Below, piece by piece: positions 35,101 to 60,850 of a stretch of 62,912 nt of DNA. The notes below the pieces were generated by a model. The model searched no databases. It was not told the origin of the DNA and was given only the letters and a program-made list of their open reading frames with translations. The translations under genes and the position numbers were made by a program. Location: sequence record SRR2962707_3740; one strand, written 5' to 3'. The stretch's first letter is position 1, and every line of letters begins with the position of its first letter.

Positions 35101-38100
35101 TCAGGCCGTTTGTATCGGTTATTTCATAGGTGAAAACTTCATCCTCGGGAGAGCCGCTGGGGAGTGCGATCACATCAACATTTTCACTGTCGACATTATA
35201 ACGTGCCGTGCCATCGGAACTTATATAAAGCGTCCCATACTCACCTGTAACAGCAACTTCTGTTGCGCCACTGGAAATGCTGGTAAGGGCACCCGCTGCG
35301 TTCAGGTTTTCAGAATTGATCCCGGAAACCCGAAGATTGGTGTTCGGCTGGTCAGCACTATCAACGTCTGAATCGGCCCCGTCTCCGGTGTCATTGGTAA
35401 TCACGTTGCCAGACGGGTTGCTTTCAGCTGCATCCGTATCGCCCAAACTGCTATTGGCAGCTTGGGCGACGGCCACATTGTTCGTCGCAACCGGATTATC
35501 ATTTGCGCCATTAATCGTGATGGTCAGATTGGCAAGGTCATTCAACCCGGCCGCATCGGTGACCTGATAACTAAAGACTTCTGTTAGTGTGTCCCCGGCG
35601 GACAACGCCTGAACATCTGTATTGCTGTTATCAATCACATAGGAATAATCACCGTCCGAGTTTATGGTCAACGTACCATACGTTCCCGTGATTTCTGTGT
35701 CGTTCGAAGGGTTAATGTCTACGGCTGTCAGTGCGCCGCTCTCATCCTTTGGAACGGCACGAACCCCGCTTACGGTTTTGGTTTCGCCATTTGCAACGCT
35801 GTCGACATCGGTATCATTTGTCAGGACATTTCCTGTGGCATCAGAACCCGGGGTTCCGTTGGAAACGCCACCGGCCTCGGTTGCGCTACCGGTATCATCA
35901 ACGCCAACCGGGGCATCGTTGGCGCCTGAAATGGTCACCGTAAAGGTTGCGGTATCCGTGGCATCGGCAGTGTCCGACACAGTGTATGAGAAAACCTCGC
36001 TCAGCGTATTGCCGCTAAGGCGCAAGGCCTGCACAGCGGCATTGTCATTATCGACGACATATTGATAGCGACCGTCACTTTGAACCACCAGACTGCCATA
36101 TAGCCCGGGGATGGTTGCTGATCCACCCGATGAAATCGTGTAGGTATCCAGTGTGCCGTCCAATGTGACATCAGTGACGCGCAGTTCGTCATCATTGGTT
36201 GCGATATCAACATCGGTATCATTGGTAAGCAGGTTGCCGCGTGGATCAACCCCCGGTGTCAGGTTATCATTGCCTCCGGCTTCGGTCGCGGCGGCGGTAT
36301 CATCATTCGCTGATGGCAGGTCGTTGACGGCATTGACGGTGATTTGCAGGCTGTCGGTGTCGGTCAGGGCATCGTCACTGGTTTCGCCCGGTGTGCCGTC
36401 ATCATCTGCATCGCCGTAATTGCCGCGGTCGGTGGTGGTGACGGTCAGTGTGTCTGTTCCGTTATAGTTGGATGTGCCTTGATAGGTGACATTGTTGGCC
36501 AGTGTTGCATTGATATCGGCTTTTGTCCCTCGCAGCGTCAGGGTCGCGCTGCCGTTACTGCCTGATACAATTGTTGCACCCGAAAGGTTTACCGTCACTG
36601 TTCCTTGCAGAACAGTAAGGGTGACTTGAAGTTCGGAAACACCGCCGCGATCAGAATCAATATCATCAATTGAGATACCCGAAATCGCGATCGAGGTATC
36701 TTCGTTGACCGTCTGATTGCCCGGTAAGGTATTTACCGGCGCGTCATTCTGTTCGACATAACCGGCATCTGCCGTATCCGTTCCGCCCTCTCCCAGCGTG
36801 ATATCGACCTGTCCAAGGGTTCCGCCTGTACCATCCGTATCAATACGAACTTCAAGATCACCAACCGGTTGTGCGTATGTAACGGTATCTGTCGGGGTAT
36901 CGATCCGGTAATTTCCAGATGGCAAGACACCAAAACTGTATTCGCCATTGGCATCGGTTGAGGTGGTAAAGACCAGATTATCCGCCGTGGTCGTAAGGTC
37001 GCCATCGGCACCGGCCCATGTCAGGGTGACGGTCAATCCGTCCAACCCGGTCGCTCCACCATCGGGTGTGGTGTTTGCGCCATCTGCAGCTGCCGTTGAC
37101 GTGTCGTTCCATAACGTACCGCTGATGACACCAAGCCCGGCACCTTCGGTCAGCACATATGTATTGGCCCCAACGCCCGAGCCGGTTCGTTCGCCATCAC
37201 TGTCACCATCCGTACCAACACTGTTGCCGCCCCAGCTTGTGAAATCTTCGGGCAGGCTGCTCCAGGTCAGGCTGGCGTCGGTTGAGGCGATAGCGATGCC
37301 ATTGGGCACATCCACCGAATAGGTGACAACGACTGAATCATCGACATCAATCTGGTCAAAATCAACCGATATGCCGCCGGTCTCACTGAAAGTAATGCCC
37401 GATGGCAGGTTACCCGCAGTATATGTGGTGTCATTGATCTTGATGCTGATCAGGTCGTAATTGGTCCCGCCGGTGAAATCGTCGGTCACGTTGGTGTTAA
37501 AGGCCGGTGCACCGCCATCCTGTGTGAAGCTCAGTTCGACAGTGGCCGTGCCAGTGCTGCCGGACGGGTTCGGATCGAAATCGGTGACGGTTTTATCAAC
37601 GCTGTTGAAGCTTGGTTCGACTACTGTTTCGGTAAATGTATCGCTTTGTGCGCCGTTCGTGCCGTTGCGAATTTCCTGAACTTGCATGCCCAGTGCAGCA
37701 CCAGCCGAGCTTGCCGCCACATTGGCAACCCTGACATTGAATTCCAGAACAATGCCTTCACGATCACTGTCGACTTCGCTGTTGCTAATATTGCCAAAAT
37801 CGAAAGTCACAACCTGTCCGGCGATACTTACCTGCGCTGGATTAAGTACGCCAGTTGGCGCGCCATCAGCCAGATTGGGGTCAATTGACTGAGCTTCTGC
37901 GCTGTCCTGATTTCCAGAAATCGCAAGCGTCCCTCCGGTAATCAGGGGAGCGTCGGTCGTCAGGCCACTATCTGAAATAAACCCGACCAGCATCGCGTTG
38001 TCGTTTTCATCAATGAATTCAAGACCGTTATCGAGTGTAACTTCCAACTGATAATTGGGGTTCGAGCCTTCGGGTAACAAAACGACAACCCGGTAACGGA

Positions 38101-41100
38101 TGATTTCGCCAACAGCGACCGTTTCGTTGGAGGCATCGGTTGGATCCGGGGCTGCTGTATCGGGCAACCCGCCAACCCGGGAAACCAGAATAGCCTGTGC
38201 CACCGGGAATGTCAGGGTATCACTGCGCCGGTAATCATTTAACGTGCCACCACCCAGTGTACCGTCCTCACCGGTACGTTCACCGGTACCCGCCGATGCG
38301 CCATCCATGCTGGTCCAGCGGACCTCGGCGGTGTTGCTGAAATTGGCTTCGGAGGCGGCGGTATCATTGACCGTGCCGGTGACCCGAATAACGATGCTGC
38401 CGCCTTTGGTGATATCGACGTTGGCTCCGGCAATTGTTTGTAAGACACCTGAACCAACATCGATTTCAAAATCGGCACCGCCGTTGTTGGTGGCCCCGCC
38501 GCTATAGGTAATACCGGCGATGGTCAGGCCATCAAGCTCGGTCGGAAGGGTGCTGGCGAGACTGATGTCAAAGGCATCAAAGTCCGTGTCGCTGTTGCCA
38601 TTGGTGATGGTGATGGTGAATTCAACATCGTCGCCTTCGTCAAAGCCCAGAGTGGTGGACGTGACAACCGTCTGATCAATGGTCAGGGTTGGTTCGCGCA
38701 AGGTGATCGTTGGTTTACCATCGGAAAGTGCAACCGTGCGGTTTTGTGGGGTTGATCCATTGGCGGTATCCCCGTCTGGATCGGAATAGGTAAGCTCGGC
38801 ATTGTTCTGACGGGTTGTCCCCGCCTGATTGGCTGCGACGTTTTCTGCAACCAGCCGCACGCGAATGACAAAGCTGTTATTCCCGGTGTCATTGTCAGCC
38901 GTGGTGGTCGACGCACTAAAGGAAAAGCGGCCATCCACCCCGTCATCACCAAGCGATCCGGACACTGCGGCAAGGCCGCTAATGGTTACGGTTCCGGCAA
39001 AGTCATTTGAAAGCGCACCACTTTCAGATGTCAGCGTTATCAGTTGATATCCTGATCCGTTGAAGCTGGTATCAAGGCTCATACCCGATGGGACCAGATC
39101 ATCAATCTGCAGGGACTGCGTTGTGCCTTCGGGCAGGGTGACGACGATGTCATAAAGCATACTCTCACCCACCACAAGGTCCGAGCCCGTGGTGTGAGAT
39201 GCACTGGAATCACTGTTATCAAGGCTGCCATCAGCAAAGTTTTTGCGAATTTCCGGTGCGGCGACCTGTTGATCGGCAGTATCGGTCAGGTCCGTCGATG
39301 TGAAATCTGTGCCGCCATCAACGCTGGCATAATTGCCAAGTGTTGCTGTGGATTGCAGCGTGGTACTGGCATCAATCGCATCGTTGACTTCAACGTCATA
39401 GGTAATAACGACAAGATTGGACCCGTTGGTATCGGCAGATGTACCGTCCCGCCCGGCCAGAAGGGTTGCGACCCCGCCATTATCAAGGAAGGAAATCGTG
39501 TTGCCAGAAACACTGTAATCGGTATCAAGAACCAACAGCGTCCCGTCGCCGCGATATACTTGAAGATTGGCATCTGTAAGGGTGCCATTGGCAAAGCTCA
39601 GTCCGGTTGGAAGGGTGATGCTGGTGGCAACATCAAATGCACCACCTCCACCGGTATTTTCAATCGCGGTGGCAAGACGCAAAAGGTCGCCGCCATCAAT
39701 GTCGGTGACACTGCCGTCAATCGCAGTGATATCGTTTACATTGCCGGAAAATGGTGTACCGGTCGTGCCCGGTGCGCTCCATGTGCCAGTCGTGCCGCTG
39801 ACGGTGCCGTTGCTGGATGAAACCACGCCATGGCTCATGGTCAGGACAGGTTCTGCGATTGAAGATATCGGCGCAACATCCGAAGACACAAGTGTTTGCG
39901 CGGTAAGCGTGGTGGATTGTGACGATTGCGCCAGAACATTGATGGAGCGTTGATCGGCATAGGGCTGATCGCCGACCGTCATGGTGAACTGAACTTCAAT
40001 CGTGCTGCCATCAGTCGAAGATGTGTCAAAATCGCCGAAATCAAATTCGATGGCATTGCCGGCTGCACTTGTAACGGTCGGTGCAGATCCTGCGTTTGTA
40101 TTGTCCCCGCCAAAATTCCATGTGTCGGTACCCGATCCCATGGACCAAGTGGTGCCGGAGACACCAACATCAAATAACGGCAGCGGCAAATACGCGGTCA
40201 GTACGAAGTCTTCGTAATCACTGGTCAGAAGATCGTAATTCAGCGTAAAGGTAACAACGTCACCGGGGTTAAGCTCAACATTTGAGGGCGGGGTGCTGCC
40301 ATTCACATCTGATATCGTAATATCGATGCTGCGATGTGCCAGTGTGTGGCTGGTGGAACTGTCATCGCTTTCATCACTGCCCGTCAGGTTCAGCGCATCC
40401 TGAAGGATGGTGGCCGTGACCGAGGCACTGTTGCTGATGGCATCCCCTTCATTGATGGCATTTTTCGGCGTCGAGCCCGATGTATAATTCTGGCTCAGAA
40501 CCGCACTGTAGCTGATCACGCCAAGGGTGGCGCCCACCTGTGTGTCATCAAAGGCCAGATCCCCGATCAGGGCCCCCAAAGTCAGGCCGGAATTGCGCAG
40601 GGCTTCTGCAATATCAAGCGTTACCGTTGTGACACCGTTGGAGTCAGTTGATTGGTTTGCAGTACCGGTTAAATCGATGGTGTGAGACGCACCATTCATG
40701 GTGTAGGTGAATGTTGCCGGCGGAGACCCGACCAACGTTTGGCCATCACTTAGCGTATCCGTAATGACGAAGCTGCCATTTTCAAAGAAGTCTTCCCCGA
40801 AGGCAAAATAATCCGAGATCGCCAGATCGAGTGTATAGCGCAGTGTATCGCCCGGTGTCAGACCACTTTGACCATTATCAATGGCAACGGTTGCCGATTT
40901 TTCGACAGTGATCGACTTGGCAACAAAGCTGGTACTTGATCCGGTGCCAGTGAATTCGATGTTTTCGGCATCATCTTCAAGATCACGCTCATCAAGCGGC
41001 ACCCAGTTGCCCGATCCGGTCGGGCCATCAACCGTGATGGTAACATCATCACCTGTCGTGGGATTAAGCACGAGATCACCGTCGCTATCGGCTTCGGGAA

Positions 41101-42706
41101 CATAGAATTCAACAACCGTGTCGGTTGCCGCCGAAAGGGTGTCGTATTTGACAGTGAATTCCTTGATGAAAATGCTGTCGCTGCTGATCGCCTGATCGAT
41201 CAGTGTACTATTGGTCAGGACCGTGCCGTTATAAAGCGTGATCGATGTGATGGTGCCGCCACTTCCTGCTGTGATCGCGGTAACCTGTATCTGATCTGGC
41301 AGTGGTTGGGTGACGACAACATTGGTCAAGGTTTGCCCGATGGCGGGTGTCGCCGTCAGGGTCAGGCTGTGGACATAGTTCGGACCGGTGGTGACTTCCC
41401 CTTCGGGTGCATTGACCGACTGGCTGATCGAAATGATTGTCGGATGGACGACAAAATCATGTGTAGATGCTTCAATCAAAGACGGATCGGTGGTCGGGTT
41501 ATCAAGCGAATCATTGCCAAATTCAAACCCGCCACGCACCTTGATCGTCAAATCGGGGCTGCCGTTTGATTGTGCCGTATCGGCAAGATTGCTGAGTGCT
41601 GCAGTAATGTCGACCGATATGGTCGGCTGATCTTGCGACACGCTGGCGAACGGCAGTTGAACCACCACCAACTGATCACCGGCCTGAAGGCCATATGTCG
41701 CAGCATTGATCACCACCGCATTGCCACTGCTGTCTTTGGCTATCGGGTGGGTGGCATTGCCGTCCGCATCAAAGGTAATGGTATGGGACGTCAGGGTCTG
41801 ATCAAGATATTTGGCCGAAATAAAGGTGACACCATCATCGGCCTCGGCTCCTGCGCCATCTTTGCCTGTCGCCGGAAAGAACAGATCAAGATAGGGCGCG
41901 AACCCGACTTGGGAGCTGTTATTTGCAAAATCGACCGTAAAGGTGAACTGATCCCCAAGAAGGACGTCGCTGCCTGATCCGACCGAAACCAGCGGATCGG
42001 CGTCGACAAGCAAACCGTCGTAGTTTGCCATGACTTCCGCGTTCAGCGCGTTGGCCTTATCGATAACGCCAACCTGGGTTTCAAGAACCCAGTCGCCGCC
42101 AAGGGCACTGGCCCCGGTTTCATCATCGGATGCGGCTACATCCGCCCCCGTGATGTCGGCCAACCTGGAAACGAGTACCTGTCCGGCCGACCCGGCACCA
42201 ATGTTACAGCCATAGAGTTGAATATCGGCATCTTCGGAAAGATGATCGCGCCAGTCTGAAAAGCTGTCTGACAGGGCATCGATGGTTTGCGCAGTGATCT
42301 GGCTGCTGCCCAGAACAAATTGTCCGGATGCGCCATGCGAAAGGATCTGGATGGACTCAACTTCACCAATCTCGTCAAGGGCGGCAGAAATGGCATCCAC
42401 ACCGTTTGTGCCACTGTCAACGATCAGAACGCTGACATTCGCACCAAGGTTTGCTGTGAGTTCGGAAAGATTATCGACCCGGCCATCAATAACCAAAAGA
42501 TGGGAGCCCGATGAAGGTGTCTCTGTGGTGGTGGGTTCGGGATGTGTTTGATCAGCGGCATCGCTGTGATCGCTGCTGCCGTCTTGATGGCTGGTATCCT
42601 GATGTTCTACAGCGACCGCAGCCGCCCCATCAAACAGAATCCTCGGTTCAAGCGCCAGAGTGTGACTGACTGGCCTGAACGGATTCCGCACAGTGTCGTC
42701 TCGCAT
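32144..42706 (-). CDS. Giant (3520 aa) repetitive surface protein/adhesin: LEPR-XLL leader, DUF4347, DUF11/isopeptide-like Ig domains, SdrD-B-like domain, cadherin-like domain, ~9 VCBS repeats, Pro-rich tail
   Basis: LALEPRILFDG; ILSHGASG...LYGCNIG...ASDDETG...GGDWVLE (DUF4347); PGDTLRYTL, VGESMLYDIVVTLPEG, VGEIIRYRVVVLLPEG; repeated NDAPVA..D...GNVLTNDTDVD...YGTLT...DG.YSY. Confidence 0.92.
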   Translation of the reverse strand: MRDDTVRNPFRPVSHTLALEPRILFDGAAAVAVEHQDTSHQDGSSDHSDAADQTHPEPTTTETPSSGSHLLVIDGRVDNLSELTANLGANVSVLIVDSGTNGVDAISAALDEIGEVESIQILSHGASGQFVLGSSQITAQTIDALSDSFSDWRDHLSEDADIQLYGCNIGAGSAGQVLVSRLADITGADVAASDDETGASALGGDWVLETQVGVIDKANALNAEVMANYDGLLVDADPLVSVGSGSDVLLGDQFTFTVDFANNSSQVGFAPYLDLFFPATGKDGAGAEADDGVTFISAKYLDQTLTSHTITFDADGNATHPIAKDSSGNAVVINAATYGLQAGDQLVVVQLPFASVSQDQPTISVDITAALSNLADTAQSNGSPDLTIKVRGGFEFGNDSLDNPTTDPSLIEASTHDFVVHPTIISISQSVNAPEGEVTTGPNYVHSLTLTATPAIGQTLTNVVVTQPLPDQIQVTAITAGSGGTITSITLYNGTVLTNSTLIDQAISSDSIFIKEFTVKYDTLSAATDTVVEFYVPEADSDGDLVLNPTTGDDVTITVDGPTGSGNWVPLDERDLEDDAENIEFTGTGSSTSFVAKSITVEKSATVAIDNGQSGLTPGDTLRYTLDLAISDYFAFGEDFFENGSFVITDTLSDGQTLVGSPPATFTYTMNGASHTIDLTGTANQSTDSNGVTTVTLDIAEALRNSGLTLGALIGDLAFDDTQVGATLGVISYSAVLSQNYTSGSTPKNAINEGDAISNSASVTATILQDALNLTGSDESDDSSTSHTLAHRSIDITISDVNGSTPPSNVELNPGDVVTFTLNYDLLTSDYEDFVLTAYLPLPLFDVGVSGTTWSMGSGTDTWNFGGDNTNAGSAPTVTSAAGNAIEFDFGDFDTSSTDGSTIEVQFTMTVGDQPYADQRSINVLAQSSQSTTLTAQTLVSSDVAPISSIAEPVLTMSHGVVSSSNGTVSGTTGTWSAPGTTGTPFSGNVNDITAIDGSVTDIDGGDLLRLATAIENTGGGGAFDVATSITLPTGLSFANGTLTDANLQVYRGDGTLLVLDTDYSVSGNTISFLDNGGVATLLAGRDGTSADTNGSNLVVITYDVEVNDAIDASTTLQSTATLGNYASVDGGTDFTSTDLTDTADQQVAAPEIRKNFADGSLDNSDSSASHTTGSDLVVGESMLYDIVVTLPEGTTQSLQIDDLVPSGMSLDTSFNGSGYQLITLTSESGALSNDFAGTVTISGLAAVSGSLGDDGVDGRFSFSASTTTADNDTGNNSFVIRVRLVAENVAANQAGTTRQNNAELTYSDPDGDTANGSTPQNRTVALSDGKPTITLREPTLTIDQTVVTSTTLGFDEGDDVEFTITITNGNSDTDFDAFDISLASTLPTELDGLTIAGITYSGGATNNGGADFEIDVGSGVLQTIAGANVDITKGGSIVIRVTGTVNDTAASEANFSNTAEVRWTSMDGASAGTGERTGEDGTLGGGTLNDYRRSDTLTFPVAQAILVSRVGGLPDTAAPDPTDASNETVAVGEIIRYRVVVLLPEGSNPNYQLEVTLDNGLEFIDENDNAMLVGFISDSGLTTDAPLITGGTLAISGNQDSAEAQSIDPNLADGAPTGVLNPAQVSIAGQVVTFDFGNISNSEVDSDREGIVLEFNVRVANVAASSAGAALGMQVQEIRNGTNGAQSDTFTETVVEPSFNSVDKTVTDFDPNPSGSTGTATVELSFTQDGGAPAFNTNVTDDFTGGTNYDLISIKINDTTYTAGNLPSGITFSETGGISVDFDQIDVDDSVVVTYSVDVPNGIAIASTDASLTWSSLPEDFTSWGGNSVGTDGDSDGERTGSGVGANTYVLTEGAGLGVISGTLWNDTSTAAADGANTTPDGGATGLDGLTVTLTWAGADGDLTTTADNLVFTTSTDANGEYSFGVLPSGNYRIDTPTDTVTYAQPVGDLEVRIDTDGTGGTLGQVDITLGEGGTDTADAGYVEQNDAPVNTLPGNQTVNEDTSIAISGISIDDIDSDRGGVSELQVTLTVLQGTVTVNLSGATIVSGSNGSATLTLRGTKADINATLANNVTYQGTSNYNGTDTLTVTTTDRGNYGDADDDGTPGETSDDALTDTDSLQITVNAVNDLPSANDDTAAATEAGGNDNLTPGVDPRGNLLTNDTDVDIATNDDELRVTDVTLDGTLDTYTISSGGSATIPGLYGSLVVQSDGRYQYVVDNDNAAVQALRLSGNTLSEVFSYTVSDTADATDTATFTVTISGANDAPVGVDDTGSATEAGGVSNGTPGSDATGNVLTNDTDVDSVANGETKTVSGVRAVPKDESGALTAVDINPSNDTEITGTYGTLTINSDGDYSYVIDNSNTDVQALSAGDTLTEVFSYQVTDAAGLNDLANLTITINGANDNPVATNNVAVAQAANSSLGDTDAAESNPSGNVITNDTGDGADSDVDSADQPNTNLRVSGINSENLNAAGALTSISSGATEVAVTGEYGTLYISSDGTARYNVDSENVDVIALPSGSPEDEVFTYEITDTNGLTTTATITITVYGANDDPVAQDAFAIAQESGGVNNATAGSNPTGDVTSRDVDPDGDPLTVVAIRTGPSGGGGTSGTIGVALTGTYGSLTLNSDGTYSYVVDNTNTTVEALRNTTNTVTERFTYTIEDGGGLQDTAEIVIVIRGQNDAPVAVDDSATAVEAGGESNNSPGTDPSGNVLTNDTDVDSTANGETKEVSAIRTGAEAASGTSGTVGSELRGTYGWLTVNEDGSYSYRLDNSNATVQALRNSGNTLSDTFTYTVSDKAGASDNAAITITIQGANDTPTASNDTAIAVEAGGTNNGTAGTNPTGNVLTNDSDVDANGESLSVSAVRQGTTIGTVGSGLAGSYGTLTLTSSGSYSYVVDNSNAAVQALRSSTQTLTETFTYTTRDLAGATSTATLTVTIRGANDAPVAVNDTATATEAGGTNNGSAGVDPTGNVLTNDTDVDSSDTKSVTGIRTGSESASGSILSVSGSRTVTGTYGTLTIAANGTFTYAVNNSLASVQALKAGDSLSESFTYRLSDGSGATDLAEIAITINGAWDAPVAVNNFAYAVAENAENTAKNPEGNVLTNDTDVDSGDSKYVNGARTGSESAGGALDAVTSNTSKDDGTELVGTYGTLTIGADGTYRYVVDSTNTDLINLPAQGSKTEIFTYQVVDDGGQTDIAQLTVIIRGRNDAPVAVDDTNTASDQTQAPHATGNVIPNDTDTDDVNSLEVIAIRTGAEDGTGTEGTLGTSIQGKYGTLTLNADGSYSYAIDLRNSEVLAAAGLGTVLKDEFTYTLSDDWGATDQANLTINLDIAAPFVPAPEGNGLRGGNQPGDFVVTQPPPPPLGDPTPAVFVTPTVQINSSVNEAVNSQTNGADILLGLPAFIRSQSIGSGLGDITGQFVGGSVGSSEFESSLDLAVFVGRQGRVDLNADGLLSDPSLFAPFSNGLTNDGGLTTAAIDTAPPKSASNFTAQLQQAGQQLPPTAIPTIPTAPNAPVSPDSSA
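32720..36325 (-). repeat. About nine tandem ~130-aa VCBS/cadherin-like repeats in the giant protein
   Basis: Repeat starts NDLP, NDAP, NDNP, NDDP, NDAP, NDTP, NDAP, WDAP, NDAP; diverged at DNA level. Confidence 0.85.
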
Positions 42707-42956
42707 TCCAACCGAACCCTTAGGGTGATTATCATTATATTGATTTCAATTATCGTCTCATTTTTCACCTGCTGCGACAATAAGATATTCGCGTTTAAAT
42801 GCGTATTAGTTTGTTCTTATTCGCTTTTTGGGCGCACTGACTATAGATGTTGTGTTGTGCGTACAAAGGGATACAGCCCCGGTCAGGGGACTCGCATGAG
42901 GCTTTTGAAAAAAATCACCCACAGATTTCCGGTGCGTTTTTTGTGTCTTTCGGGTG

Positions 42957-43120
42957 TCAGGACACCACGCTTGGCAACCAGTTGGCCCGCGACGGCCGCA
43001 GCCAGACAACGATGATGCAAAACAGCTGCAGAGCAATAAACGGGATAACGCCCCGAAAGATCCGGCCGCTGGTGATTTCCGATGGCGCGGTACTGCGCAG
43101 GTAAAACAGCGAGAACCAAA
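42957..43120 (-). pseudogene. C-terminal remnant of a TRAP large permease (dctM)
   Basis: Translates FSLFYLRSTAPSEITSGRIFRGVIPFIALQLFCIIVVWLRPSRANWLPSVVS*, a typical DctM C-terminus; no start or upstream homology. Confidence 0.75.
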
Positions 43121-43353
43121 TTGAGAGCAGATAAAGGAGCTTTCTCCGGGCCAGTCGAATGAAGCTATCTTACAACAGGAATTTTCTGCGCCCACACCTT
43201 CGGATACTTTCCTCCAACTTATGCCCAGCTTGGTATGAAACATGCTTTAATAGCATTCTATCCCCGAATTATGACAACTCAGGTGGCAATCATTCTTTAA
43301 AAAGTATGGGGAATTTGAGAGCGATGCAGCAATGCTCATATGATATGAACATT

Positions 43354-43499
43354 TGTCAGGTGCCATAAAAGCTGACACCTGACTTCTTTTTAAATCAACT
43401 AGTTAGCTTTTCCGGTTGCCAGAAAAGTTGACACTGATTGACACAAAAGATGACAAAAAGCTGCAGGATTGACAGAAAAGCTGACATTTTTCTTCTGAC
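43354..43499 (+). mobile_element. Tn7-family transposon end (left-end-like), element extending rightwards
   Basis: TGT+5 nt then first repeat; four 18-bp repeats, consensus TTGACAGAAAAGNTGACA (43360-77, 43416-33, 43438-55, 43469-86); IHF consensus AATCAA-CTAG-TTA at 43393-43405 between repeats 1 and 2. Confidence 0.7.
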
Positions 43500-43819
43500 G
43501 CAAAATTTAACCTCCGACACATAGAGTACAAGAGACTGCCCAGTCAGCCGTGTAAACTTAATCAGCGAACCGGACATCGCCTTTAAGCAATGCTAGCCTG
43601 ATGAGACAAACTTCTTTGCGGCAAGGGTCTGCATATCGACAAAGACAAAGTTGCTTTCACAACCAATCGAAAATTTTACAGGAGAAACACTATTAGATCA
43701 CAGTAAGTATCTGCTATATTTGGCCGATATTCCGACAGGCAACTATAATTAAAGCCCACACCTGTCTAACGTTCGCACATTGCACATAGTGAAACACTGC
43801 CTGTTAGGATCTTCGCCCC

Positions 43820-44554
43820 GTGAACCCCTTGCATTCCGATCAACATGTTCAAACCGGCACCCTTTCAAACATTGTTTATGAACGCATCCTGACGATGATC
43901 ATTAACAAAGAACTGTTGGTTGGTTCGAAACTGCCTACCGAACATGTTTTAAGTGAAAAAATGGAAGTATCACGCCCGGTTCTGCGACAAGCTCTTAAGC
44001 AATTGCGGGAAGATGGCGTTATCGTTTCACGGCGTGGATCTGGATCTTACGTCACTCGCAAACCAGAAAGTGCGGCAATGGAATTTGCCCCAGCTGGTTC
44101 TCTCGCAGATATCCAGAAGTCATTTGAATTCCGCGCCGCGATTGAAAGCGAAGCAGCCTTTCTTGCTGCTGAACGCAGGAGCGAGCGCGACATTCAACAT
44201 ATCACCTCACTGATCAAGGCACTCGACATTTGCGCCCAAAACGGTGAATTGGGAACGGATCTTGATGAAGAACTTCACGAGGCCATTTGTCTTGCATCTG
44301 GCAACACCTATTTCGTCAAGGCCCGGTCATCTATCAAGACAAACATCCTGACCGGGATGAATTTGACCCGCAGCCTTTCATTGACCAAACCAAAAACCCG
44401 CCTTGAAACCGTACAAGCAGAGCATTACGCAATTGTCGATGCTCTGAAACGGCGTGACAAGGAGGGTGCCCGGGTCGCCATGAGAACGCATCTGGAAAAA
44501 GCCCGTATTCGCGTCTTTGAGAGCGAAAGAAAGAACGACGACCTACTTAGTTAA
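43820..44554 (+). CDS. FadR-subfamily GntR regulator
   Basis: GSKLPTE..LSEKMEVSRPVLRQAL...SRRGSGSYV plus FCD domain. Confidence 0.92.
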   Translation: MNPLHSDQHVQTGTLSNIVYERILTMIINKELLVGSKLPTEHVLSEKMEVSRPVLRQALKQLREDGVIVSRRGSGSYVTRKPESAAMEFAPAGSLADIQKSFEFRAAIESEAAFLAAERRSERDIQHITSLIKALDICAQNGELGTDLDEELHEAICLASGNTYFVKARSSIKTNILTGMNLTRSLSLTKPKTRLETVQAEHYAIVDALKRRDKEGARVAMRTHLEKARIRVFESERKNDDLLS

Positions 44555-44604
44555 GGTCGCCTGCTACAAATCCAACTTTGCACGTCGCGTTCATATCTGT
44601 GGGA

Positions 44605-44967
44605 TTATTCTGCTTCTTTGGGCTTTTTATTCCAGCCATGCGCGTCCATAAAATCTTCGCGTCGCGGGGTAAAGGCATCAAGCAATATTCCTGCTTCCAG
44701 ACAAAGACATTTGTGAAACGCATGTGGCGGGATCAACATGGCATCGCCGGGATTGAGTATTTTGGTTTCTTCCTCAACAGTAAACTGAAAAGACCCTGAT
44801 GATACATAGGTTGTCTGGGTATGGGGATGGTTATGCCAAAGACCCTGACCGTCTTTTTCAAACCGAAATTCAACCATCATCAGTTCTTCATTCTCACACA
44901 GAATGCGCCGCTTAGCACCCGGACCTGAAGTCATCCATTCTGACGGACTATCTGAATTAACAATCAT
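44605..44967 (-). CDS. kdgF: Cupin, KdgF-like (unsaturated uronate processing)
   Basis: RRIL....LMMVE..F, H.HPHTQ..YV.SG.F, H...CLEAG.LLD.FTP.REDF. Confidence 0.8.
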   Translation of the reverse strand: MIVNSDSPSEWMTSGPGAKRRILCENEELMMVEFRFEKDGQGLWHNHPHTQTTYVSSGSFQFTVEEETKILNPGDAMLIPPHAFHKCLCLEAGILLDAFTPRREDFMDAHGWNKKPKEAE

Positions 44968-45025
44968 GCCTTCTCTCTTAGCTGTTTATACATTAATGGC
45001 AGAAGCAACCAATTACATGCTGTGC

Positions 45026-45055
45026 AAAAAATGGCCCGGCGAACCCGCCGGGCCA
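45026..45055 (-). terminator. Terminator after kdgK (last of three adjacent hairpins, 45026-45104)
   Basis: TGGCCCGGCG-AACC-CGCCGGGCCA plus a minus-strand U6 tract. Confidence 0.7.
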
Positions 45056-45133
45056 GTTAGGGTCTCGGGAGACCCATTTGCCGGCCACCAGGTGGGGCCG
45101 ACAAACTTACAAGATGGCAAACTGGCAAACCAA

Positions 45134-46039
45134 TCAGTCAACCAGCGCCCCCAATTTCGAGATGACTTTCGCGGCAAGTATCCCACCACATGCGACGGCA
45201 TCCGGGATATTCTCATCTTCAAGATAAGACGCCAGAAATCCTGCGTTAAACGCATCACCTGCAGCCGTCGTATCAACCGGATATTCGACTTTGGCCGGTG
45301 CCCAAGAAGACAATCCCCCTTGGGAGTTCTGCGCTACGACTTCGTGACCGCCATTCTTCACAACAATCACTTTGCCCGGTTCCGTTGCATATCGCCGGAT
45401 GGTTTCCTCGGGGGATTTATCCCCAAAATGGATGTGCTCATCCTCAAAAGACGGCAGAACAATATCGGCAACCTCACCGGCTTTGCTAATCACCGAACGC
45501 ATCGCATCGAAATTTTCCCAAAGATGAGGCCGCACATTCGGATCAAACGCGATCAAACTACCCTTAAGCCGTGCCTCTGCCAGTGCTGCAATGAAACCAC
45601 GTCGTTTCTCTGGACTAAGGATCGCAAGCGTTATGCCCGAAAAGAAGAGAACGCCTTTGCCTTCAAGAGAATGCTCAAACCGCTCTTTGTCGTCCATCAT
45701 CGCACGCGCCGCAGAGTTACTACGCCAATAGGAAAAGCTGCGCTCGCCTTCTTCTAGCCTCACAATATAAAGCCCCGGTGATCGGCCTGCCACAGTCACG
45801 ACATCTCCGGTGTTAACTCCTGCCTCGGCAAAGAAACGAAGCATTTCGGCTGACCAGTGATCATCGCCGACCGCCGTAAAGTAACCAACACTCCATGCAT
45901 CACGCATTTGCCGGCGGAGATACCATGCAGTGTTGAATGTATCGCCTGCAAAACCCGACTTGAAGTCACCACCTTGTAAAGGCGACATTTCAATCATGCA
46001 TTCCCCAATCAGGAGAATTGATCTGTCAATCAAAGCCAC
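45134..46039 (-). CDS. kdgK: 2-keto-3-deoxygluconate kinase (PfkB family)
   Basis: IGECMIE, FAGDTFNTAWYL, ERSFSYWR..SAAR, FDPNVRP.LW, DTTAAGDAFN. Confidence 0.9.
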   Translation of the reverse strand: MALIDRSILLIGECMIEMSPLQGGDFKSGFAGDTFNTAWYLRRQMRDAWSVGYFTAVGDDHWSAEMLRFFAEAGVNTGDVVTVAGRSPGLYIVRLEEGERSFSYWRSNSAARAMMDDKERFEHSLEGKGVLFFSGITLAILSPEKRRGFIAALAEARLKGSLIAFDPNVRPHLWENFDAMRSVISKAGEVADIVLPSFEDEHIHFGDKSPEETIRRYATEPGKVIVVKNGGHEVVAQNSQGGLSSWAPAKVEYPVDTTAAGDAFNAGFLASYLEDENIPDAVACGGILAAKVISKLGALVD

Positions 46040-46137
46040 GCGCTGTTCCTGACATACCGCCCATCTAAACCAAGATGCTAACCGGGATCAGAACGCCCCA
46101 ACCCCGTTCAGCATAGATCACAAAGCAAGACGCCGTA

Positions 46138-46899
46138 TTACGGCATCAACTGCCCGCCATTGACCTCAACAGCCTGACCGGTGATGTATCCGGCAAGTTC
46201 ATCAGATGCGAGGAACAGATAAGCACCAACACAATCATCCGGTGTTCCCAAACGCTTCATCGGAATACTTGCCGTAATGTTCTTAAGGACTTCCGGGCTG
46301 GTATGTTTTTCATGGAACAGGGTGTAAATCGTGCCTGGAGAAACAGAGTTAAAGCGAATACCGTCAGCAGCATGTTCCTTAGCATACGTCTTGATCAAAT
46401 TCTGAACTGCCGCCTTGGACGCAGCATAAAGACTTGCACCAGCACCCCCGCCCGTTTTTGAAGCAACAGACCCAGTGATGATGACGTTGCCTTCTGATTT
46501 TTTCAAGTGTGGCAAAGCTGCAGAACAGGTCGAAACAACAGAACGCACGTTAAGGTTCATAACGCTGTCATAGAATTCATCGGAAATGACATCCAGACCG
46601 ACACGATCAACCAACCCGCCTGCGTTGCAGACCAACACATCGATCCGGCCAAATTTGGCGACAACATCCTGTACCATTTTCTTTACAGCAGCAGTATCAC
46701 GCAGATCGGCAGGGAACAGTTCAGCTTCACCAGACTGGCCCACAATTTCGGCCAGAACTTCTTTTGCTTCAGCGTGGCTCGATCCATAGTTGATTGCAAC
46801 CTTTGCACCGCTTTTGGCAAAACCCTTGGCAACAGCTGCGCCAATACCTGTGCTTGCACCTGTCACGAGAACTACTTTGTCGTCAAAACGTATCGTCAT
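46138..46899 (-). CDS. SDR resembling DEH (4-deoxy-L-erythro-5-hexoseulose uronate) reductase
   Basis: TGASTGIG, NAGGLVDR, GGGAGASLYAASKA, PGTI.T.FH, GYITGQ..EVNGGQ recall Sphingomonas A1-R/A1-R'; adjacent to kdgK and kdgF. Confidence 0.75.
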   Translation of the reverse strand: MTIRFDDKVVLVTGASTGIGAAVAKGFAKSGAKVAINYGSSHAEAKEVLAEIVGQSGEAELFPADLRDTAAVKKMVQDVVAKFGRIDVLVCNAGGLVDRVGLDVISDEFYDSVMNLNVRSVVSTCSAALPHLKKSEGNVIITGSVASKTGGGAGASLYAASKAAVQNLIKTYAKEHAADGIRFNSVSPGTIYTLFHEKHTSPEVLKNITASIPMKRLGTPDDCVGAYLFLASDELAGYITGQAVEVNGGQLMP

Positions 46900-46943
46900 T
46901 GTCTGATCCTTAGTCTTTTGATTCTAGTACGTTTGGGTTTCAA

Positions 46944-47654
46944 TCAACCCACTGATTCTTGGTATTTTTTCAAGGTTTCTGCATTTGGCGGATAAAGACC
47001 GATGATGCTTTCGCCATTGCTGACACGCTCATAGACATAGGCCTCGAACGCCTCCATTTTTGGGAGTTCTTCGGCAAGTTCCTCTACCAGGTTGAGCGGC
47101 ACAATGACCACGCCATCACCATCACCAACCACTAAATCACCCGGGAACACAGGGGCCCCGCCGCAACCAATCGGAACATTGATGTCAATTGCTTGATGGA
47201 GCGTGAGATTGGTCGGCGCAGAAGGGTTCGCGCAAAAAGCCGGCATAGCAAGCGATGCGATATTTTCCGCATCCCGCAAGCCGCCATCCGTCACAATGCC
47301 GGCACAGCCACGCACTTCAAGACGCTTGGCCAGAATACTACCGGCAGATGCCGCATTGGAATCCCGACGGCAATCCATAACAAGAACCTGCCCGGCAGGA
47401 ACCGTTTCGACCGCATAACGCTGTGGATGCTTCGGGTCTTTGAACACTTCAAGCGTGTTAAGATCTTCACGAGCCGGGATGTATCGCAGCGTGAAAGCTT
47501 GACCAACCATACGTTCATGATCTTTTCCAAGCGGTACAACCCCTTGGACAAAGTTATTGCGGATGCCGCGCTTATAGAGTTGCGTGCAAAGGCTTGCAGT
47601 TGAAGCCGTGCGAAAGACATTCATGATGTCTTCACTGAGAATTTTGATTTCCAT
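46944..47654 (-). CDS. RraA/HMG-CHA aldolase family protein
   Basis: G.AFTLRYIPARED, GIVTDGGLRD, PGDLVVGDGDGVV. Confidence 0.85.
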   Translation of the reverse strand: MEIKILSEDIMNVFRTASTASLCTQLYKRGIRNNFVQGVVPLGKDHERMVGQAFTLRYIPAREDLNTLEVFKDPKHPQRYAVETVPAGQVLVMDCRRDSNAASAGSILAKRLEVRGCAGIVTDGGLRDAENIASLAMPAFCANPSAPTNLTLHQAIDINVPIGCGGAPVFPGDLVVGDGDGVVIVPLNLVEELAEELPKMEAFEAYVYERVSNGESIIGLYPPNAETLKKYQESVG

Positions 47655-47736
47655 TAGGAACTCTCCTGAAGGTCAGATGGCATAACACCGGCAATCGCGA
47701 ACTGCACTGGTTCAAGCACGCTCGCAAACCGGCCAG

Positions 47737-49017
47737 CTATCCCAGTAATGACGGTAAGAACAGTGAAACTGAGGGCACGAACGTCACAAGCAGAAGGGCT
47801 GCCAACATCGCCAGATAAAACGGCCAGATGGTGCGCAGTGCTTGTTCAATCGGGACCTTTCCAACAGCACAGCCAACGAACAAACACGTCCCTACTGGCG
47901 GTGTGCAAAGCCCCAAGCCGAGATTGACCAACAGCATGATACCGAACTGAATCGGGTCCATTCCAATCGACGTAGCAATCGGTAAGAAAATTGGCGTGCA
48001 AATCAAAATCAACGCTGCCATATCCATGATCATACCAAGCGCCAGAAGAATGACGTTAAGCATGAGCAGAATAACAATTGGGTTTTCAGAGATCTCCAGC
48101 AGCGTATTCGTCAACAATTCCGGCACCTGATAAAACGCCAGAAGATAGGCAAACGCGCTTGCACAACCGATCAGGATCATGACAACCGATGTTGTCCGCA
48201 CAGCACTGACCAGACACTCAGTAAACGCGTTCCAACTGAGCGATCTGTAAACAAGCGCAGTCAAGACGAAGGCATAAATTGCACCAAATGCACCTGATTC
48301 TGTGACTGTAAATACCCCAGACAGAACGCCGCCAACAATGATCACAGCTGTAAACAGGCCGGGCAATGCAGACGCTGCAGCGGTCAAAACAACCGCCCAA
48401 CCGGGAAATGGCTCTGCAGGGTAGTTTGCCTTAACAGCAAGAATATATGCCGCGATCGCAAGGAAAACACACATCAGGATGCCCGGAATAACCCCGGCAA
48501 GAAACAGCTTGGAAATAGATATCCCGCCACCAGCTGCAACTGCAAAAATGATCATGTTGTGACTGGGTGGAATAACAACGCCCGCGATTGATGATGTCAC
48601 GGTAACGTTGACTGCATAGTCACCTTTGTAACCCTTCTCTTTCATTGCCGGGATAATCAGCGATCCGAGCGCCGAAATATCGGCAACTGCAGAGCCTGAG
48701 ATTCCACCAAACAACATGCTTGAGAAAATATTGACCGTCGCCAATCCTCCACGCACACGTCCAACAAGAGCCGAAGCAAAGCGCACCAGTTTAAGTGCCA
48801 GACCGCCATGCAGCATCAGTTCGCCAGCGAAGATGAAGAACGGAATTGCAAGCAATGAAAAGACAGAAACACCCGAGACAACACGCTGGAATGTCAGAAG
48901 TGCAGGGAAACCTTCAAATGCGAAAGCTGCCGCCGCGGCCAGGCCCATTGCAAACGCGACCGGTACCCCAACAATAATACTGACCCCAAAGACGCTCAGA
49001 AGAATAGCCAACCCCAT
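47737..49017 (-). CDS. dctM: TRAP transporter large permease
   Basis: AIPFFIFAG, SGSAVAD, IPPSHN, TPPVG. Confidence 0.95.
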   Translation of the reverse strand: MGLAILLSVFGVSIIVGVPVAFAMGLAAAAAFAFEGFPALLTFQRVVSGVSVFSLLAIPFFIFAGELMLHGGLALKLVRFASALVGRVRGGLATVNIFSSMLFGGISGSAVADISALGSLIIPAMKEKGYKGDYAVNVTVTSSIAGVVIPPSHNMIIFAVAAGGGISISKLFLAGVIPGILMCVFLAIAAYILAVKANYPAEPFPGWAVVLTAAASALPGLFTAVIIVGGVLSGVFTVTESGAFGAIYAFVLTALVYRSLSWNAFTECLVSAVRTTSVVMILIGCASAFAYLLAFYQVPELLTNTLLEISENPIVILLMLNVILLALGMIMDMAALILICTPIFLPIATSIGMDPIQFGIMLLVNLGLGLCTPPVGTCLFVGCAVGKVPIEQALRTIWPFYLAMLAALLLVTFVPSVSLFLPSLLG

Positions 49018-49018
49018 T

Positions 49019-49546
49019 TTATTCTCCCGTATTTTTTCTTATGAGTTTGTGGGTCGTATTCAGCAGTTCGCAAAGCGCCTGTGCGCTGGCAAACATGAAC
49101 ATCATGCCTCCACAGATAATAACCGGCAGCGTACGAAAGCTCTCGGGGATGTTCAGCATTGGCAATTTGGTTGACCAACCGAACTCAAACAGCTCGACAC
49201 TGTTGGTCATCATAATGAAACCAAACACGGCAACGGCGACGTGCGTTACAAACACTAACGGCCTGCGAATGAAAGAGGGCGTTGCGTCTCTAAGAAACGC
49301 CATACCAAGGTGCCGGTCCTCATAAACGCCTGACGCTGTCGCAAGAAAGGTAATATAGACCACTAAAAGCAACGCAAGTTGCTCAACCCAGGTCGGGGTC
49401 GAATTCAAAAGGTATCGACCAATCACAAGCCAGCCAAAGGTCAAAATCAAAACCACAAGCGCACAGCAACACAGGAATAGATTGATCCGGTTAACCCAAT
49501 CAAACAGCACCTGAACCCGTGCCAAAACTTTTTCCAGGAAACGCAA
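49019..49546 (-). CDS. dctQ: TRAP transporter small permease
   Basis: VIGRYLLN.TPTWVEQ; 4 TM segments. Confidence 0.9.
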   Translation of the reverse strand: MRFLEKVLARVQVLFDWVNRINLFLCCCALVVLILTFGWLVIGRYLLNSTPTWVEQLALLLVVYITFLATASGVYEDRHLGMAFLRDATPSFIRRPLVFVTHVAVAVFGFIMMTNSVELFEFGWSTKLPMLNIPESFRTLPVIICGGMMFMFASAQALCELLNTTHKLIRKNTGE

Positions 49547-49570
49547 GGTTGTTCACTCCGGCATGTCGGA

Positions 49571-49604
49571 AACGGTTCGCGCAAATCGTTTTGCGCGAAC
49601 CGTT
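49571..49604. other. Perfect 15-bp hairpin between dctP and dctQ (probable mRNA stabiliser)
   Basis: AACGGTTCGCGCAAA-TCGT-TTTGCGCGAACCGTT. Confidence 0.6.
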
Positions 49605-49626
49605 CCTAAAAAGATTACGCGACAAA

Positions 49627-50631
49627 TTAGTCGGAGTTACGCATCAGCTGAACAAGGTCGGACAGCTCAGGATTTGCTTCAAGGAACTGGGCATATACCG
49701 GCTCCATTGCAGCCTGAAACTTGGACTTGTCATCGATCGTGTTGATCTGGACGCCTGCATCACGAAGCTTGCTCATGCTGGCTTCTTCACGTTCCGCCCA
49801 AAGCTTACGCTGAAGGGTTACGCTATTGGTTGCAGCTTCTTGGACAATCGCCTGGTCTTCAGCCGAAAGCTCATCCCAGGTGCGCTTGCTCATGCACAGG
49901 CATTCTGGAATGATCAGGTGCTCGGACATCGAATAGAAACCTGCAACCTCGAAGTGGTTGGTTGATTCATAAGATGGTGGGTTGTTTTCTGCGCCATCAA
50001 CAATACCCGTCTGCAGCGCGGTATATACTTCACCAAATGCCATTGGTGTTGCATTACCACCCATTGAGTCGACCATGCCAACGAATAGATCGTTGTTCAT
50101 GACCCGGACTTTAAGGCCTGCAACATCATCCGGCGAATTGATCGGCTTCTTGGAGTTGTAGAAAGAACGTGCACCGGCATCATAGTAACCAAGCGCAACG
50201 ATGCCCTTTGCTTCAAGTCCTTTGCCAATCGCAGCGCCTGCTTCTCCGTCCATCAAACGGTGCATCTGATCAACACCCTTGAAAATGAACGGCAAGGAAA
50301 CAACGTTTGCTTCCGGAACAGCCTGCCCCATCGGGCCGAGGCTGAAGACACCAAAATTGATGATACCAAGACGGGTTTGCTCGATCGCATCAGGCTGCGA
50401 CCCCAAAACGCCGCCGTGGAAGACTTTGCTGGCCAGGCGACCATCCGTCTTCTCACTAACTTCGGCAGCAAATGCTTCCATGCCGTGCGAAACTGGATAA
50501 TCCACAACATGGATGTTCCAGCCGCTCCAATCTTTTGCGTCTGCGGATGCGCTTGCGACAAGAGCCGGCGCAATCAACAACGCCATCAAAGACGCCTGGA
50601 TTTTCGAAGACCACTTCTTCCCTAAAGACAT
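49627..50631 (-). CDS. dctP: TRAP substrate-binding protein (uronate-type)
   Basis: YYDAGARSFY, GLKVRVM, PMAFGEVYTALQTGIVDGAENN. Confidence 0.95.
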   Translation of the reverse strand: MSLGKKWSSKIQASLMALLIAPALVASASADAKDWSGWNIHVVDYPVSHGMEAFAAEVSEKTDGRLASKVFHGGVLGSQPDAIEQTRLGIINFGVFSLGPMGQAVPEANVVSLPFIFKGVDQMHRLMDGEAGAAIGKGLEAKGIVALGYYDAGARSFYNSKKPINSPDDVAGLKVRVMNNDLFVGMVDSMGGNATPMAFGEVYTALQTGIVDGAENNPPSYESTNHFEVAGFYSMSEHLIIPECLCMSKRTWDELSAEDQAIVQEAATNSVTLQRKLWAEREEASMSKLRDAGVQINTIDDKSKFQAAMEPVYAQFLEANPELSDLVQLMRNSD

Positions 50632-50944
50632 ATTATGTTTCTCCCTGATTTTTTTACATTACCAGTTTGGCAATGCCATAGGTATTATATCAACCACCAA
50701 TACGCCGCAACTCATAATTTACAAATATTTACAACATTTGAGATCGCCTTCACACATAGTGAATTTATCTATTTGATATAATTATATATTATCAAAATCC
50801 TGAAATGTTAAAATCCTTGAAGGCACCCATTATTAGTCAACTTTTGTTTGCATTATATAGGCCATGAGATAATATCTCTTCTCATATCTCATCACGATTC
50901 TACACCTGAAATCTCGCGCCACCCTAACCTTGCAAGAGTCATGA

Positions 50945-51691
50945 ATGACCAAATCCCCGCTCCATTCCCCCAGAAAAGCCTCGCTCACCGAAACCGCGAC
51001 GGAGCGATTAAGAGCGCAAATCAAAACCGAAAACTTGTCCCCTGGCGACCCGTTACCCAAAGAGAAAGATTTATGCATCCAACATGATGTTAGTCGCACA
51101 GTGATCCGGGAAGCTCTTGCAACACTCAAAGCCGATGGGCTGGTAATTGCAAAACATGGTGTTGGATTTTTCGTGGCCAACCCAAGTCGAAAGCCAATAA
51201 GTGACTCTTCTGGCTTTGACTTGGGCAACCTCAAAAATGTCTCATCAGTCCTTAACGTTCTGGAACTACGTGTCGGGGTCGAATCCGAGGCCGCTGCACT
51301 CGCCGCCCAGCGCCGTTCCCCCGCACAAGAAGCCAACATACAGGAATGCTATGAACGTCTGAAATTGGCATTGGAGAGTGAAGAGCTCGATTCCGGACAA
51401 CCAGACCATGCATTCCACCACGCCGTCGCTGAGGCCACGAACAATCCGATCTATGTCGATTTTTTGGACTACATAATAGATGCCGCCTTAAAGCAGGCAT
51501 TTGAGATTGGTTACGGTGCGAACGAAGCTCGACGGCTCGATAAAATCGACATCCTGCTCAGTGAACATCGGGAAATTGTCGATGCCATTTCAGAGCGGGA
51601 TGCTGAACGCGCTCGTCGTGCAATGCGCGAACATCTGGAAAAAAGCGCAACACGCTTTCGACAATTGTCTTATCATCGCAGCTCCACCTAA
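50945..51691 (+). CDS. FadR-subfamily GntR regulator
   Basis: PGDPLPKE..L....VSRTVIREAL...KHGVGFFV plus FCD domain; divergent from the TRAP operon. Confidence 0.92.
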   Translation: MTKSPLHSPRKASLTETATERLRAQIKTENLSPGDPLPKEKDLCIQHDVSRTVIREALATLKADGLVIAKHGVGFFVANPSRKPISDSSGFDLGNLKNVSSVLNVLELRVGVESEAAALAAQRRSPAQEANIQECYERLKLALESEELDSGQPDHAFHHAVAEATNNPIYVDFLDYIIDAALKQAFEIGYGANEARRLDKIDILLSEHREIVDAISERDAERARRAMREHLEKSATRFRQLSYHRSST

Positions 51692-52201
51692 GCTGGGCAA
51701 ATCCGCTAAGAAATCATCTCTACTTCTGATAAGAACAGTTTATCCGGTCAACCAATCCCAACTGATCAGCTACCCTTTCCAAGCTCTATTCGGCCGCTAG
51801 GCGATTAAACAACCCTTGCGCCGGTTTGGCTTGCACACACTTTATGCACAATCCACATTAAAAAAAATAGATCACTGCCTATCTTTATTAACTAGGATAC
51901 AGGAATCTTAAATATCGATATAACTTGCACGAAATAAAAAAAATCGACTAAAATAAGCATGAAAGCTGGATATGTCGCGAGGCACGTGAAGCTCGTTGCA
52001 CCCATCATGACCAGCTTGCCTGCACAGGTTTGAAAATCAGGCAAGGCCAAGTGACTGTTAGCTCTTTGCAGACATCAGAAGAGCGCCCAAATATCACTAT
52101 AGAACACACAATTTTTTCACACAGCATACAGATAGCTATGGCTCAGCAAACGGATATAATATGATCGTCGACTTCTTTGCATTACACGCTACAGAAACAC
52201 T

Positions 52202-52894: not shown

Positions 52895-52905
52895 AGTTCC
52901 CGCTT

Positions 52906-53772: not shown

Positions 53773-53780
53773 AGTCGATC

Positions 53781-56742: not shown

Positions 56743-56859
56743 CTGATCCTCCCTGATTTGCGCTTTGCGCGATTTCGAAGCCAACCCAACAAGAGGATCA
56801 ACAACGACATTTTTTAGCTTGATCTGATCCGGACTGCGGTTTTCTTCTCCGCATGATGG

Positions 56860-58458: not shown

Positions 58459-58474
58459 TTTAGAAAGGTGTCAC

Positions 58475-60846: not shown

Positions 60847-60850
60847 GGCC

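Follow-up and report, generated by a model that had tools for sequence, protein, structure and literature searches.

A probable left end of a tRNA-Met-homing, Tn7-like transposon family of Thalassospira, with a conserved IHF consensus

Features of the locus

The stretch of DNA analyzed here, referred to below as the window, comprises 62,912 nucleotides. An intergenic region between divergent genes contains a 140-bp unit with the anatomy of a Tn7-like left end, in which TGTCAGGT begins at 43354. The features of this unit and its surroundings are listed below, where G001 denotes Thalassospira lucentensis Mv1, the closest genome.

7481-7500, + strand: tentative, diverged copy of a border motif that bounds a 35.7-kb segment on its left
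about 26115-26213, + strand: decayed second left-end copy, with the terminus mutated, the repeat 3 region deleted and the IHF consensus lost
43262-43277, + strand: CCCCGAATTATGACAA (reverse complement TTGTCATAATTCGGGG), a dif-like motif at module borders, with a putative function
43262-43348, + strand: tRNA-distal half of the native attachment region with the distal hairpin arm, 95% identical to G001
43349-43353, + strand: target pentanucleotide ACATT, one of the two copies that a 5-bp duplication would leave; ACATT also flanks an element in G001
43354-43493, + strand: left end of a Tn7-like transposon, with the terminal TGT at 43354-43356 and the element interior to the right
43360-43377, + strand: repeat 1, a presumed TnsB site 6 nt from the terminus, in columns conserved to at least 90%
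43393-43405, + strand: AATCAACTAGTTA, an IHF consensus that lies between repeats 1 and 2 and is positionally conserved in the left ends of relatives
43416-43433, + strand: repeat 2, from pattern match and conservation
43438-43455, + strand: repeat 3, from pattern match and conservation
43469-43486, + strand: repeat 4, an exact match to the consensus, from pattern match and conservation
43585-62912, + strand: accessory gene block, possible cargo, with homology in G001 and partly in G002 and G003

The four co-oriented repeats, which are 17/18 bp in length, showed three, two, two and zero mismatches to TTGACAGAAAAGCTGACA, respectively, and contained TTGACA and a direct repeat of the form TGACA-N7-TGACA. 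When up to three mismatches were allowed, TTGACAGAAAAGCTGACA matched five times in the window against an expectation of 0.05, and none of 100 shuffled sequences reached five matches; the fifth match, also co-oriented, was located at 26189-26206 inside the decayed second copy. The IHF consensus AATCAACTAGTTA was the sole exact match to WATCAANNNNTTR in the whole window, where 2.68 matches are expected by chance, and it is therefore not significant alone. The TGT start at 43354, the four co-oriented repeats and the exact IHF consensus were all read as the original prediction had described them; the repeat spacings of 56, 22 and 31, which it had given as end-to-end distances, are in fact start-to-start distances. 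We also observed that GTCAGGTG and CACCTGAC can pair in the window copy and are followed by TTCTTTTT, giving a terminator-like hairpin on the + strand at 43355-43392, and that a sigma-70-like site is present at 43315-43344, just upstream of the left end. The promoter and terminator scan revealed nothing above chance.

The decayed left end near 26.1 kb was co-oriented with the main copy and lay directly after a thioesterase gene, without an attachment flank. The search for a right end in the window revealed no inverted repeat at up to three mismatches and no repeat cluster, the tRNA scan of the window found none, and tns domains were absent from the 52 window ORFs that were scanned. The description of the locus as intact was thus borne out for the end itself, but not for an element, as the right end, a tns gene and a tRNA were not found in the window.

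The block to the right of the end (43585-62912) encodes GntR/FCD regulators, a PfkB kinase, an SDR protein, an RraA-like protein, four TRAP transporters, a dioxygenase and an FAA hydrolase. The G+C content to the right of the end was 0.46-0.51, compared with 0.53-0.55 for 26-43 kb. The earlier statement that this DNA is AT-richer therefore held against the 26-43 kb region, but positions 1-7 kb of the window likewise showed values of 0.50-0.53. The block was contiguous in G001 only (92%) and partial in G002 and G003; elsewhere its genes matched at the level of paralogues (approximately 65-70% identity), and 34 of 37 genomes had some match in all. The GntR/FCD regulator at 43820-44554 had its best match in T. 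lucentensis Mv1, with 98% amino acid identity. The homology to G001 to the right of the end started at 43585, not at 43354, and reached the end of the window at 91-93%. In G001, the block occupied 177.8-197.1 kb, outside four left ends, where it adjoined a LysR-type gene and carried no repeats. Positions 43494-43584 formed a joint unique to the window. The right-hand block is accessory in the genus, and the uronate and aromatic genes are possible cargo of the element, as had been proposed. They are called possible cargo only, because the block lies at another place in G001, without an end and with homology only from 43585, and because of the joint at 43494-43584.

On the left side, window positions 1-7500 corresponded to G001 105406-97909, and window positions 43263-43491 corresponded to G001 97923-97695. 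In G001 the flank-plus-repeat unit directly followed the left block, while the window had an extra 35.7 kb (7501-43262) between them. This segment, which is absent from G001, had two imperfect copies of the border motif at its edges and contained genes for an ImuB-DnaE2 error-prone polymerase, TRAP transporters, thiolase/CoA enzymes and a MarR regulator, as well as an HlyD/OEP type I secretion set and a 3520-aa protein. Additionally, a gene for a giant secreted-repeat protein was located just outside the unit composed of motif, flank and left end both in the window (32144-42706) and in G001 (L016:11757-19901); the two genes were similarly placed and showed no DNA similarity to each other.

Left ends, right ends and the attachment site in Thalassospira

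A 146-nt query from the left end matched 58 places in 26 of 37 Thalassospira genomes, and most of the full-length matches began at query position 1. We collected 43 left-end loci with their flanks; the terminus TGTCA(G/C)GTGCCA was kept in 40 of them, and conservation was computed on these 40. Over the first 140 nt the median ungapped identity was 0.81; it fell to 0.27 for the 60 nt leftward and to 0.25 past position 145. Column conservation, in which the counts are not independent because the 40 copies share ancestry, was high at the terminus, repeat 1 and AAATCAA, with a low stretch between the last two at 26-38, and was low again at N4; further in, it was high at TTAGC and at repeats 2-4 and collapsed after approximately position 139, just past repeat 4. 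The flanks of the 40 copies were mutually unrelated and the edge of homology at TGT was sharp. The IHF consensus in the form WATCARNNNNTTR was found at position 40 in 36 of these 40 left ends, with 19 different N4 sequences, and in none of 10 right ends. The site between repeats 1 and 2 was thus kept while its N4 varied, and the consensus is conserved in the left end only, a pattern that suggests binding by IHF.

The first right end was found in G001 at 85.67 kb in a repeat-pattern search, as one inverted site abutting a left end. This right end contained three inverted repeats with a 21-bp period and ended in ...CGACA; ACATT came next, and beyond it the adjoining left end began with its TGT. 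Together with the left end at 97832, it delimited an element of 12,167 bp (G001 85666-97832) with both ends and with ACATT on either side. The 5-bp duplication predicted for the window was therefore present around an element of the closest genome, and the window itself shows the left copy only. The 12,167-bp element had no transposase genes, and no transposase was found among the 55 ORFs annotated in 66-150 kb of G001. All 10 right ends that were collected shared a 7-nt terminus and three inverted 17-nt repeats with 4-nt linkers (21-bp period).

Matches to TnsA (PF08722) were found in 12 of the 37 genomes, and eight matches in seven genomes belonged to this tRNA-Met system; six of the matches, in six genomes, were located approximately 1 kb from the tRNA-Met gene and a right end. 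In two elements we read a tnsA-tnsB-tnsC-tniQ operon beside the right end, and the Pfam domains of its products were TnsA_N; rve and Mu-transpos_C; TniB; and TniQ and HTH_17. The TniQ proteins of the family were 517-541 aa in length, had a C-terminal HTH and showed weak similarity to solved TniQ structures. Compared with PDB entries, TnsB was closest to that of PseCAST (E value of 1e-69), followed by Tn6677 (7e-62), type V-K (1e-35) and Tn7 (1e-23). The NCBIfam search returned only a TnsA-like match below the cut-off and generic DDE matches. From these comparisons, the family is predicted to encode TnsA, a TnsB nearest to that of I-F3 CASTs, a TniB-type TnsC and a TnsD-like TniQ. The original prediction had proposed to look for inverted copies and for tns loci and had treated a motif never found near tnsB as counterevidence; in the relatives, inverted copies were found as right ends beside tnsA, tnsB, tnsC and tniQ, and the ends of this family adjoin tnsB. 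Together with the homology edge at TGT in 40 copies, these right ends support the assignment of the locus to the left ends of the Tn7 family.

Duplications were evident in five of the eight genomes with a tRNA-proximal right end, in which a left end carried the matching pentamer (TCCAT, TCGAA, ATTAT, ATGAC or ATACG), and no matching pentamer was found in the other three; ACATT in G001 gave a sixth left/right pair. Complete elements of 19-37 kb with matching duplications were present in G009, G019 and G030. In G005 (C11 521.5-628.1 kb), a tRNA-proximal right end and the outermost left end lay 106 kb apart and both carried TCCAT, and the interior contained three further left ends and a second tns operon. 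Such an arrangement would be expected if one pentamer was used repeatedly, or if the whole is a composite element of very large size. In the same region (L021:1420-1450, approximately 585.44 kb), a right end and a left end abutted without a spacer (GGCACGTGAC|TGTCACGTGCC), as opposed to the 5-bp joint in G001.

The attachment gene of the family was tRNA-Met(CAT), with dnaG and rpoD on its far side from the right end. Of 44 left-end matches on the contig that carries tRNA-Met, 42 were located 3' of the tRNA, faced it and were 10-110 kb away (hand tally); the two exceptions, G018:186746 and G029:492139, lay on the other side of the tRNA locus, and the other 14 of the 58 matches were on other contigs. 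The attachment gene that had been expected to the right of the end was thus found in the relatives as a tRNA-Met gene toward which the left ends face. A search for rpoD-tRNA-Met loci gave 36 matches, from which 30 were fetched and 27 were readable. In eight of the 27, a right end followed the tRNA after 7-17 nt, measured from the string that ends the tRNA body. A further 13 were unoccupied and consisted of the tRNA, a hairpin, a spacer and the conserved 16-nt border motif; one had the hairpin only, and five had other sequence. In these five loci (L069, L072, L073, L085 and L087), a different and partly shared sequence, which was neither the flank nor a right end, stood right after tRNA-Met and may represent another kind of insertion at the same tRNA. 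The four closest attachment loci (G001, G029, G027 and G008) were unoccupied. A tRNA scan of 140 kb of G001 and of L001 revealed tRNA-Met only.

The 92 nt to the left of TGT in the window (43262-43353) were 95% identical to G001 66749-66840, which abuts the tRNA-Met gene. In the empty site of G001, ...GAACATT runs straight into GCTGCACGG and then into tRNA-Met, and forms a hairpin there that is split by the insertion. In this alignment, the left end of the window sits precisely at the half of the native attachment site that is distal to the tRNA (ACATT). It would therefore mark the outer boundary of an insertion, or of an array, extending rightward to a tRNA-Met gene past 62912.

State of the window copy and island building

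Taken together, we consider it very probable that positions 43354-43493 represent a true left end, belonging to a Tn7-like family that resides in Thalassospira, homes to tRNA-Met and lacks cas genes. In a functional element of this family, TnsB would bind at both ends, on the four left and the three close-packed right repeats, and IHF would introduce a bend into the 38 bp that separate the first two left repeats. Insertion would be directed by TnsC together with the TnsD-like protein to a point 7-17 nt past the 3' end of tRNA-Met(CAT), the gene after dnaG-rpoD; it would place the right end beside the tRNA and generate a 5-bp duplication.

As left ends outnumber right ends by approximately 40 to 10 among those collected, most left ends in the genus are orphans. 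On balance, we favor the reading that the window copy is likewise an orphan end in an accretion array. The other serious reading is a complete mobile element of at least 19.5 kb with the uronate and aromatic genes as cargo, whose right end, tnsABC-tniQ genes and tRNA-Met gene would lie just past 62912. This reading accords with the undamaged end (TGT, four repeats with 0-3 mismatches and the IHF consensus), with the complete elements of 19-37 kb in G009, G019 and G030 and with the accessory nature of the right-hand block. However, the window itself gave no sign of a right end, tns genes or a tRNA, the attachment sites of the closest genomes were empty, the block adjoined no end in G001, and most left ends were orphans. 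An orphan end was rated more likely because of the roughly 4:1 excess of left ends over right ends and because the four closest attachment loci were empty, and we regard a complete element as rather unlikely.

The unit might instead be a small RNA gene, a promoter module or a MITE-like dispersed repeat with no relation to transposase ends, as could be suggested by its dispersal as a unit of approximately 140 nt, the sigma-70-like site upstream and the hairpin with its T-run in the window copy. However, the hairpin formed by GTCAGGTG and CACCTGAC and the T-run were not kept in the other left-end copies, an Rfam search of 42700-43900 at E values up to 1 gave no match, and the unit had no inverted terminal repeats inside it. 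Paired right ends and 5-bp duplications fit better with transposon ends, which makes this alternative very improbable. It is still harder to credit that the locus is the left end of a CRISPR-associated transposon of the I-F3-like type. In its favor, the nearest TnsB in the PDB is that of I-F3 CASTs and the IHF site occupies the position described for the left ends of I-F CASTs. Nevertheless, the search for Csy3 (Cas7f), which covers type I-F, found none in 37 Thalassospira genomes, the first 9-14 kb of two complete elements, which encode a long TnsD-like TniQ, contained no cas domain, and targeting was to a fixed tRNA site. The CAST option of the original prediction was thus unsupported. Equally remote is the view that the repeats are operators of a local factor, such as the GntR/FCD regulator at 43820-44554, or another intergenic regulatory array: the position between divergent genes and the TTGACA and TGACA-N7-TGACA elements would suit it, but we rejected it because the orthologous region of that regulator in G001 (98% amino acid and 91% nucleotide identity) lacks the repeats, and because across 26 genomes the unit stands beside unrelated genes and is associated instead with the tns genes and with tRNA-Met.

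Returning to the left end of the window, the 16-nt border motif at the outer edge of its flank may offer a clue to how orphan ends could arise. The motif gave 64 matches at up to one mismatch in 28 of 37 genomes, compared with one control match, and 48 of the 64 were located downstream of tRNA-Met and co-oriented with it (hand tally). The sequence TTGTCATAATTCGGGG, usually followed by (T/G/A)TATGG, closed every attachment flank that was read as unoccupied. Copies of the motif, which recurred at many loci (e.g., L063:1976 and L021:8508), also bordered right-end modules on their inner side and followed tns modules. The tns-less element of G001 carried a hybrid motif, in which a right-end-type arm, TGATCATAA, was joined to GGGGTTAT. 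In the window, the search found one site, and none at the decayed end near 26.1 kb; upon alignment, the single copy at G001 97909-97923 matched both window 7486-7500 and window 43263-43277, that is, one copy in G001 against two in the window.

The layout of the motif, ...CATAA-TTCGGGG-TTATGG..., is similar to that of a dif site. In G001 a candidate dif, named from its position and sequence only, was located in L092 (C1, approximately 2271543, or 2.27 of 4.59 Mb, approximately 49.5%) and reads TTGCATAG ATTTAT TTATGTCAAAT; it shares a TTATG(T/A)CAA arm with the border motif. The search of G001 with the canonical dif pattern gave 11 matches compared with 22 control matches. A search for tyrosine recombinases in G001, G009 and G005 found none inside the island of G001. 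Separately, G001 has just one distant exact copy of the border motif, away from its island (C1 1198001-1216000, L093); it was 3.6 kb from a tRNA-Arg gene, which has an adjacent tyrosine recombinase in a 366-aa frame.

From these sequence features, we tentatively propose a cycle, which we judge more doubtful than likely, in which the islands 3' of tRNA-Met (10-110 kb by the spread of left ends) would be built by alternating Tn7-like insertion and Xer-type recombination at the dif-like TTGTCATAATTCGGGG plus TTATGG. A Tn7-like element would first insert at the attachment site. Dif-like sites lie outermost in the native attachment flank, on the inner side of the right-end module and following the tns module; Xer-type recombination between them would then strip the tns module and the right end and restore the empty attachment site. 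Each cycle would leave an orphan unit composed of site, flank, 5 bp, left end and cargo. The window would accordingly contain one such unit (43262-43493), an older decayed left end near 26.1 kb and a 35.7-kb module between two copies of the site.

Significance and comparison with known systems

The Thalassospira family is a further member of the known class of Tn7-like transposons. A literature search for Tn7 in Thalassospira found no related account, and existing catalogues of Tn7-like elements, for example PMC8649781, may already list these loci. The analysis revealed that a Tn7-type end can be recognized from raw sequence and assigned to a family with an attachment site and a predicted partner end, and it identifies, in marine Alphaproteobacteria, a protein-targeted relative of the I-F3 CAST transposases that homes to tRNA-Met. 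It also accounts for the mosaic of transporter and catabolic modules, up to approximately 100 kb, that lies beside rpoD-tRNA-Met in Thalassospira. Since a family without CRISPR keeps the IHF site of the left end, the use of IHF may predate, or be independent of, the capture of CRISPR in this TnsB lineage, a possibility that bears on the engineering of CAST ends. Additionally, the orphan ends and the dif-like border motif suggest a possible route from Tn7-like elements to fixed genomic islands.

Tn7 encodes TnsABC and TnsD, inserts at attTn7 downstream of glmS, and has TGT...ACA termini, asymmetric ends and a 5-bp duplication. The Thalassospira family likewise has TGT...ACA termini, spaced repeats in the left end, close-packed repeats in the right end and a 5-bp duplication; in both, the right end is beside a conserved gene, and TnsA, TnsB, TnsC and a TnsD-type selector are present. 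In contrast to Tn7, the Thalassospira family targets tRNA-Met and not glmS, has four left and three right repeats, and encodes a distant TnsB (E value of 1e-23) and a TniB-like TnsC, with no TnsE seen. It also keeps an IHF consensus, whereas Tn7 showed no IHF effect in PMC10201428.

The nearest solved TnsB proteins are those of Tn6677/VchCAST and PseCAST (E values of 7e-62 to 1e-69). As described in PMC10201428, the IHF consensus is WATCARNNNNTTR, the left end of Tn6677 has a site between its two terminal TnsB sites, transposition depends on IHF by approximately 20-fold, and the site is conserved in 20 I-F CASTs. The Thalassospira ends resemble I-F3 CASTs in that the consensus lies between the two terminal TnsB sites and in the left end only (PMC10201428). 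They differ from I-F3 CASTs in the absence of Cas7f from the Thalassospira genomes searched and of cas genes from the annotated elements, in the 517-541-aa TniQ with an HTH, and in presumed protein targeting to a fixed site.

The tRNA-homing CASTs of types V-K, I-B2 and I-D also insert shortly downstream of a tRNA gene; for example, the TnsD of CyCAST directs homing 30-33 nt after tRNA-Leu, according to the excerpted text of PMC10293859, which makes no mention of rpoD or Alphaproteobacteria. The Thalassospira family differs from these in its use of tRNA-Met, its distance of 7-17 nt, its alphaproteobacterial host and its lack of a CRISPR module.

Finally, we compared the family with the Tn6022 islands of Acinetobacter, in which a dif-like site and a XerC-like protein or recombinase have been proposed to reshuffle modules (PMC11014353). 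Unlike in Tn6022, no element-borne tyrosine recombinase was found in the island of G001, and the Thalassospira motif is also present in the unoccupied chromosomal site. Both systems are nevertheless similar in that Tn7-like elements build islands at one site, and in Thalassospira a dif-like motif stands at the borders of the modules.
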